Shown: one piece after another, positions 638 to 717 of the stretch
Position numbering within the stretch: the first letter of the stretch is position 1
Layout: each line of letters starts with the position of its first letter
Virus record (IMG/VR): IMGVR_UViG_2671180852_000012
DNA: 4,062 nucleotides
Reading direction: 5' to 3' (one strand)
Origin: a virus
Lineage: Duplodnaviria; Heunggongvirae; Uroviricota; Caudoviricetes
Notes under the pieces: model-generated
What the model was told of the DNA's origin: nothing
What the model saw: the letters and a program-made list of their open reading frames with translations, nothing else
Databases searched by the model: none
Position numbers and translations under genes: made by a program

Positions 638-717
638 CCGCCATTAGCTTATCAGGAAGAGCAGACGACACGATAACAGGGTTGTTGGTGCGGGGGCGGG
701 TCCCCGATGGCGGTCCA
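638..717 (+). tRNA. tRNA-like element, possibly a degenerate third tRNA (argN position), copy 1
   Basis: 80 nt. Perfect acceptor-like pairing CCGCCAT/ATGGCGG followed by T and CCA; a D-arm-like GCTT/GAGC helix. I could not fold a canonical anticodon arm, and the T-arm region is a GC hairpin (CGGGG/CCCCG) with a 6-nt loop rather than a TPsiC loop. Spacing between the flanking tRNAs (7 and 13 nt) is typical of a three-tRNA cluster. Confidence 0.3.

Follow-up and report, generated by a model that had tools for sequence, protein, structure and literature searches.

The 80-nt element at positions 638-717 of the window (the whole 4,062-nt stretch of DNA analysed here) is a decayed orthologue of the tRNA gene argN. 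In 933W-like and other lambdoid phages, argN encodes tRNA-Arg(UCG) and is the middle gene of a cassette of three tRNA genes. The element sits in the argN slot of such a cassette, between ileZ and argO, and is homologous to argN, but neither the anticodon stem-loop nor the conserved T loop has been retained. Because the element lies in this slot and aligns with argN, its tRNA-like structure is accounted for by homology rather than by chance, and its acceptor stem and CCA end were inherited rather than acquired by coincidence. The element falls outside the functional tRNA family, since three defining features of that family were tested (a canonical anticodon arm, a canonical T arm and a covariance-model score) and it has none of them. 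Overall, these results point to a tRNA pseudogene of the ordinary sort as the most likely identity of the element, not to a novel class of RNA, and we are fairly confident that it is an argN pseudogene that has been carried along within a selected tRNA cassette.

The tRNA cassette and the argN slot

The window covers late-regulatory DNA of a lambdoid prophage (Table 1). Terminators similar to the one found here 5' of the cassette are annotated 5' of the tRNA genes of phage 933W. The tRNA promoter role of the segment at 517..545 is putative, being assigned by homology to 933W pT alone, and this segment was not flagged by the consensus promoter scan. A sequence identical to the ileZ gene of the window is annotated as tRNA-Ile by PGAP.

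Table 1 Features of the 4,062-nt window, in order of position
Feature	Position	Strand	Basis or remark
Antiterminator Q gene, C-terminal part	51-452		ORF; Pfam Antiterm
Rho-independent terminator-like hairpin followed by a U run (tR'-type site)	492..511	+	Terminator scan; 3' of the Q gene, 5' of the tRNA cassette
Putative tRNA promoter, TTGCGG-17 nt-TATTAT	517..545	+	Aligned to the 933W feature 'pT; putative tRNA promoter'
ileZ-type tRNA-Ile2, anticodon CAU, intact	555..630	+	ARAGORN; Rfam tRNA model, 72.5 bits
Degenerate argN homologue (tRNA pseudogene), copy 1	638..717	+	Anatomy and homology; scored by no tRNA model
G5 run, T-stem/loop remnant	692..696	+	Length varies in related alleles (4 to 16 G)
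argO-type tRNA-Arg, anticodon UCU, intact	731..807	+	ARAGORN; Rfam, 68.0 bits
N6/N4 DNA methyltransferase ORF	1074-2123		Between the two copies of the tRNA block
ileZ, second copy	2173..2248	+	ARAGORN; Rfam
Degenerate argN homologue, copy 2	2256..2335	+	Identical to 638-717
argO, second copy	2349..2425	+	ARAGORN; Rfam
DUF3927 ORF			3' of the second tRNA block, before the STnc100 sRNA
STnc100 sRNA	3122-3311	+	Rfam, 132.4 bits, E = 4e-30; 3' of the second tRNA block
DUF1737 ORF, its start only			Last feature of the window, after STnc100

The tRNA block occurs twice, as a 368-nt direct repeat (516-883 and 2134-2501) with four mismatches, every one of which lies upstream of ileZ. The preliminary description of this DNA had reported an identical duplicate of the element at 2256-2335, and this second copy is indeed identical and forms part of the repeat. 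The two repeats flank the DNA methyltransferase gene (1074-2123). The full repeat-methyltransferase-repeat arrangement, in which a stx gene is absent, was covered by no phage record searched; it looks like the product of recombination between a prophage of the Q-tRNA type (mEp460-like) and a phage of the methyltransferase-tRNA-stx type. Sub-threshold Rfam matches to Trp_leader (25.7 bits) and isrK (15 bits) were also seen over the Q-proximal terminator region (412-518, + strand), and these weak matches probably correspond to the short pR'-tR' transcript that lambdoid phages typically make. Antisense to ileZ, the Rfam family 'Plastid-ycf2 5'UTR' matched at 555-628 and 2173-2246 (- strand) with 36 bits, below its gathering score; as the model of this family is tRNA-derived, these matches are almost certainly artefactual.

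The 933W record lists, in order, pT, ileZ, argN (labelled 'CGH; CGG?') and argO, and the alignment of the window to 933W runs across the promoter, both spacers and all three genes. The slot (pT promoter, ileZ, X, argO) is thus shared with argN of 933W (AF125520, 21205-21281) and with its Stx1/Stx2 orthologues, which bears out the link to the ileZ-argN-argO cluster of Stx phages that had been suggested at the outset. Moreover, the element can be aligned column for column, both spacers included, with argN of the Stx2 phages 933W and P8983 (the latter being tRNA-Arg(UCG) by ARAGORN) and with the tRNA-Lys(UUU) allele of PPompW_EH2201. As counted from the alignments, the 5' 21 nt of the element match 933W/P8983 argN at 19 of 21 positions, and its 3' 29 nt at 25 of 29 with one gap.

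The element and 933W argN have the same acceptor stem (CCGCCAU/AUGGCGG), discriminator U and CCA, and are nearly identical in the D arm, the T stem and both spacers. An alignment with reference Stx phages had been proposed as a check on the element, and 933W and P8983 do align with it, barring the lesions in the D loop, the anticodon arm and the T loop. In comparison with argN, the D loop of the element is 1 nt shorter and C13 of the D stem is changed to U. The 23 nt made up in argN by CCAGC-CUUCGAA-GCUGG and the variable loop are replaced by 28 nt without a canonical arm (hereafter the odd arm), while the T loop reads GCGGGU instead of UUCGAGU. A by-eye comparison for an origin of the odd arm in another tRNA, such as the arm of tRNA-Ile (GAU), gave nothing convincing.

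A related allele is found in Stx2e prophages, where PGAP annotates it as 'tRNA-OTHER' (e.g. NZ_CM135183, 1134302-1134382). It lies in the same slot and has an identical replaced anticodon region; unlike in the element, however, its T arm is still canonical (CGGGG-UUCGAGU-CCUGG or CCUCG) and its D stem is GCUC, and because of these retained parts PGAP still flags a tRNA there, with its type undetermined. The window allele, in contrast, has lost the T loop as well and is not flagged: in complete genomes with a 100% identical copy, PGAP annotates nothing at the element.

The element was not described in the literature searched, which covered ileZ/argN/argO, tRNA pseudogenes of lambdoid prophages, and EHEC tRNA-seq and sRNA work. 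A study of stx2i prophages shows 'tRNA-pseudo' and 'tRNA-XXX' annotations within the cassette (PMC13641118), and the first tRNA-Arg of O157 Stx2 phages has been found to be polymorphic (PMC2858043).

Anatomy of the element and tRNA-model tests

In the acceptor stem, 638-644 (CCGCCAU) and 707-713 (AUGGCGG) form 7 perfect base pairs, followed by the discriminator U714 and an encoded CCA at 715-717. The D-arm region reads UA-GCUU-AUCAGGAA-GAGC; its 4-bp stem (647-650 GCUU with 659-662 GAGC) includes one U.G pair, and its 8-nt loop keeps A14, G18, G19 and A21, with U8 also present. At the position of the T arm, 691-695 (CGGGG) pairs with 702-706 (CCCCG) to give a 5-bp hairpin with the 6-nt loop 696-701 (GCGGGU). 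When compared with a T arm composed of a 5-bp stem and a 7-nt loop with T54-Psi55-C56-R57-A58, the element has the stem but not the loop.

Between the D arm and the T hairpin (663-690), a 5-bp stem with a 7-nt loop cannot be formed and there is no U33. Two folds of this segment can be drawn. The first pairs ACGAC (665-669) with GUUGU (681-685) around an 11-nt loop, a weak stem that extends to 6 bp if G664.U686 is added; the second is the minimum-free-energy hairpin 671-677/681-687, with 7 bp and a 3-nt loop. The triplet TCG occurs nowhere in the element, and an Arg anticodon (UCG) in a canonical loop is missing. Taken together, the sequence and its folds agree with the anatomy given in the preliminary description, namely a 7-bp acceptor pairing with discriminator, CCA and a D-arm-like helix, a GC hairpin with a 6-nt loop in place of the T arm, and the lack of a canonical anticodon arm. 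The thermodynamic stability of the element is unremarkable (z = -1.29; 25 of 200 shuffles are as stable), in a shuffle test that does not reliably tell true tRNAs apart, as intact argN and argO do no better than the remnant.

The element was then compared with tRNA models. ARAGORN found nothing on it with thresholds lowered to 60%, whether introns were allowed or not, and its only calls in the window were the flanking tRNAs at 555-630 (CAU), 731-807 (UCU), 2173-2248 and 2349-2425. Similarly, the Rfam tRNA model (RF00005; gathering threshold, 29 bits) gave no match to the element at E<=10, either in the 4-kb window or in a 93-nt slice (632-724), whereas it scored ileZ at 72.5 bits, argO at 68-72 bits and the intact argN at 54.8 bits. 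The relaxed ARAGORN and covariance-model runs that had been proposed earlier therefore leave the element without a score, and the clean canonical fold that might have been missed does not exist by folding, by ARAGORN or by the Rfam model. When the Rfam search was repeated at a permissive E-value on the whole window and then on the 93 nt, only noise of 8-9 bits from eukaryotic families was obtained over the element. Over sister alleles, matches to YrlA (Y RNA-like) reached ~20 bits at E ~4 and were not significant.

The two major lesions, in the anticodon arm and in the T loop, are separable, as can be seen from mosaic alleles. At one locus (L087), the anticodon arm is canonical and only the T loop is odd (GGCGGGU); this allele is still scored as tRNA-Arg(UCG), at 45.3 bits. 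Two Stx2e-phage alleles (L125 and L051) have the odd anticodon arm together with a canonical T arm; neither gives an Rfam match, and ARAGORN takes them only as a forced tRNA-Cys with a 4-nt intron. Of these two, the former is the one listed as 'tRNA-OTHER' by PGAP. The window allele carries both major lesions in addition to the shortened D loop and the C13>U change in the D stem.

These sister alleles also bear on a divergent functional tRNA, an option raised in the preliminary description, which would decode through an expanded anticodon loop (e.g. as a frameshift or other unusual decoder). Such a role could be read from the 'tRNA-OTHER' annotation of the Stx2e allele and from ARAGORN, which, with introns allowed, forces sisters having a 7-nt T loop into a 'tRNA-Cys(aca)' with a 4-nt intron. 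However, this forced call is the 5-bp stem with the 11-nt loop, and all calls of this kind on the sister alleles ('tRNA-Cys(aca) i(33,4)', 'tRNA-???(aaca)' and 'tRNA-Leu(taa)') are artefacts of that loop; we know of no bacterial mechanism that removes a 4-nt tRNA intron. The window allele itself fails every ARAGORN setting as well as the Rfam model, has neither U33 nor a 7-nt anticodon loop, and carries a 6-nt T loop without T54, Psi55 and A58 in a T arm that is further altered by poly-G length variation. A decoding tRNA is thus strongly disfavoured, and we consider it extremely improbable.

At the related loci L001, L002 and L005-L124, the middle slot holds an allelic series on one tRNA body, in which the acceptor stem is either shared or compensated (U7-A66 to C7-G66). 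The intact argN at L002 (401-477) scores only 54.8 bits versus ~70 for ileZ and argO, the tRNA-Lys allele at L001 is called by ARAGORN without an Rfam match, and 37 of the 81 loci with canonical-type alleles have at least one non-standard stem pair (e.g. A6.A67, or A.C in the T stem). These observations suggest that weak selection acts on the whole slot, and the non-standard pairs in the canonical Arg and Lys alleles fit such generally weak selection.

Distribution, polymorphism and constraint

A 141-nt query centred on the element was searched against 5426 complete E. coli genomes, and 2901 matching records were obtained from 2890 of them. The best match was at least 99% identical in 1192 of the 2901 records and 95-99% identical in 656. 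A scan of one genome per species in GTDB detected no odd arm outside E. coli, and because the arm was found in this species only, there is no usable cross-species covariation.

The contents of the middle slot were determined in an unbiased IMG/VR sample of 120 loci anchored on the 3' end of ileZ. The slot held tRNA-Arg(UCG) at 65 of these loci and tRNA-Lys(UUU) at 18, with Arg(CCG) and Arg(UCU) at one locus each. The odd arm was present at 27 loci, accompanied by the odd T loop at 25 and by a canonical T arm at 2. The rest consisted of alleles with a 16-nt deletion of the anticodon arm (3 loci), argN/argO chimeras (3 loci) and alleles that were otherwise degenerate or truncated (2 loci). These results show that the slot is labile and has repeatedly been lost or broken, in differing ways. 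Defence systems that cleave tRNA-Lys exist, and the switch to Lys(UUU) might be tied to them.

Several rearrangements at the slot are independent of one another. At L104, a deletion joins the odd arm (~window 688) to ~window 3018 via GGTTG(T/C)TG microhomology; at L096, L023 and L050, the 5' half of argN is fused to the 3' half of argO at the anticodon loop; and at L043, a deletion joins the 3' end of the remnant to argO. The natural deletions, fusions and degenerate alleles argue that the slot is dispensable.

Such alleles are also informative on whether the element serves as a cis-acting processing module (a processing structure was another option in the preliminary description), in which the acceptor/T minihelix and CCA would provide an entry for RNase P or RNase E and aid the separation and maturation of ileZ and argO. 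RNase P recognises an acceptor stem stacked on a T stem plus a 3' CCA, and these minihelix features are the very parts of the element that survive; the spacers on both sides are likewise conserved with intact cassettes. However, cassettes without a foldable middle element, such as the Stx2c-phage allele with the 16-nt deletion and the deletion that fuses the element directly to argO, still have intact flanking tRNAs, and acceptor mismatches occur in 12% of the odd alleles. In addition, argO has its own RNase P site, so the element is not required. We therefore regard a processing role as quite improbable.

Allele counts were taken from 115 loci with the odd arm, and constraint statistics from the 106 loci with both lesions. 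Among the 115 loci, the element (80 nt) had 24 alleles, ileZ 9 and argO 15. An uncompensated acceptor-stem mismatch was present at 13 of the 106 loci, involving four different changes with none compensated; in argO of the same loci, a compensated T-stem change was found (781 C>G with 795 G>C). The poly-G run at 692-696 differed in length at 36 of the 106 loci, ranging from 4 to 16 G, although in draft assemblies this variation could partly be sequencing error; a G13 run is present in the complete genome NZ_AP042510. This run (also seen at L222, 1592-1606) is a hypervariable homopolymer in otherwise near-identical alleles. Indels in ileZ and argO numbered about one each, and truncated or fused copies of the element occurred at L043, L104 and L205.

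The density of substitution-segregating sites per nt was 0.09 for ileZ, 0.13 for argO and ~0.15 for the element overall (0.08 in its 5' part and 0.28 in its 3' part), with 0.14-0.31 in the spacers. The substitution-rate argument for relaxed constraint is weak; as the clade is young, support for relaxed constraint comes mainly from the kind of change and not from its rate. Among the options that the preliminary description had left side by side, that of a tRNA pseudogene is the one favoured here: no tRNA model scores the element, and related alleles display mismatches, variable poly-G lengths and truncations.

In a flank-anchored scan of 125 loci, the replaced arm occurred in only three versions, that of the window, A670G and G672C, with two variable sites. 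The arm is retained in several backgrounds, including the near-canonical tRNA body in Stx2e phages. G672C breaks the hairpin 671-677/681-687 without compensation, and the minimum-free-energy hairpin is thus without comparative support.

The near-invariance of this C/A-rich arm across several allelic backgrounds, the intact acceptor stem, CCA and T stem, and the very wide spread of the element in E. coli would all be in keeping with a functional, non-decoding tRNA-like sRNA, that is, a stable product of ~80 nt that arises by RNase P cleavage and 3' trimming and acts in trans, for instance by sponging up the G/U-rich seeds of sRNAs (e.g. GcvB) or by serving as a decoy for tRNA-targeting nucleases. 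AgvB, a prophage anti-sRNA, and 3'ETS-leuZ, a tRNA-spacer sponge, are models for such seed sponging. The only quantitative lead toward a trans-acting role is the predicted pairing of 658-686 with the R1 seed of GcvB (-21.9 kcal/mol), which was reached by 10 of 1000 shuffles. However, this pairing ranks only 47th among 1612 windows inside the same 4-kb window and is not distinctive, and it is weakened to -18.9 kcal/mol in the common G672C allele. A poly-G run that expands from 4 to as many as 16 G and the uncompensated stem mismatches oppose a constrained structure, while a near-invariant arm is expected for a young, recombining clade; furthermore, the element matched no Rfam family, and evidence of its expression was not found in the literature searched. 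Like 3'ETS-leuZ and AgvB, the element is a non-tRNA segment that would come off a tRNA or prophage transcript, with a C/A-rich stretch potentially complementary to G/U-rich seeds, but its complementarity, though real, does not stand out, and the resemblance is a lead from general knowledge. A trans-acting sRNA is accordingly judged unlikely. We find it highly doubtful that the remnant is excised as a stable tRNA-like RNA whose arm (~658-686) acts in trans, in other words that a dead tRNA gene has been co-opted as a prophage regulator.

Proposed fate of the remnant and its meaning

If the element is an argN pseudogene, it probably still shares its transcription with ileZ and argO, either via the pT-like promoter (517-545) or through Q-antiterminated late read-through. 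Its excision would then probably be incidental to the maturation of the flanking tRNAs by RNase P, RNase E and 3' exonucleases, as expected from tRNA processing in E. coli. The released piece would probably be neither charged nor used in decoding, and would then be degraded. The absence of charging is proposed because the element offers no anticodon for recognition by ArgRS and no G3.U70. The element may persist because it is short and neutral, with a tRNA gene under selection on either side, in a cassette that phage recombination disseminates.

Some observations count against a pseudogene. The substitution density of the element is not clearly higher than that of its functional neighbours ileZ and argO, the replaced anticodon region is very uniform and is kept in several backgrounds, and the allele is extremely common in E. 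coli. In addition, a processed RNA could be made, as nothing is missing from the acceptor stem, the CCA or the T stem. The element shares with bacterial and phage tRNA pseudogenes its homology to a functional tRNA, lesions in essential elements, and the indels and uncompensated stem changes seen in its population. What sets it apart from these pseudogenes in general is its unusual spread and uniformity, which come from its being carried in a mobile, selected cassette, and the completeness of its acceptor stem and CCA.

The understanding of tRNA biology is unchanged by these findings, unless the remnant turns out to be stable as an RNA and functional in its own right. Their main value lies in annotation and in the natural history of the cassette. 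They give a name to an unannotated 80-nt block that is found in a large share of E. coli genomes, and they explain why many lambdoid prophages seem to be 'ileZ-argO' and not 'ileZ-argN-argO'. In evolution, the middle slot has been a labile part of this virulence-associated tRNA cassette, having been occupied by Arg-UCG, Lys-UUU, Arg-CCG and Arg-UCU as well as by several independent kinds of decay.
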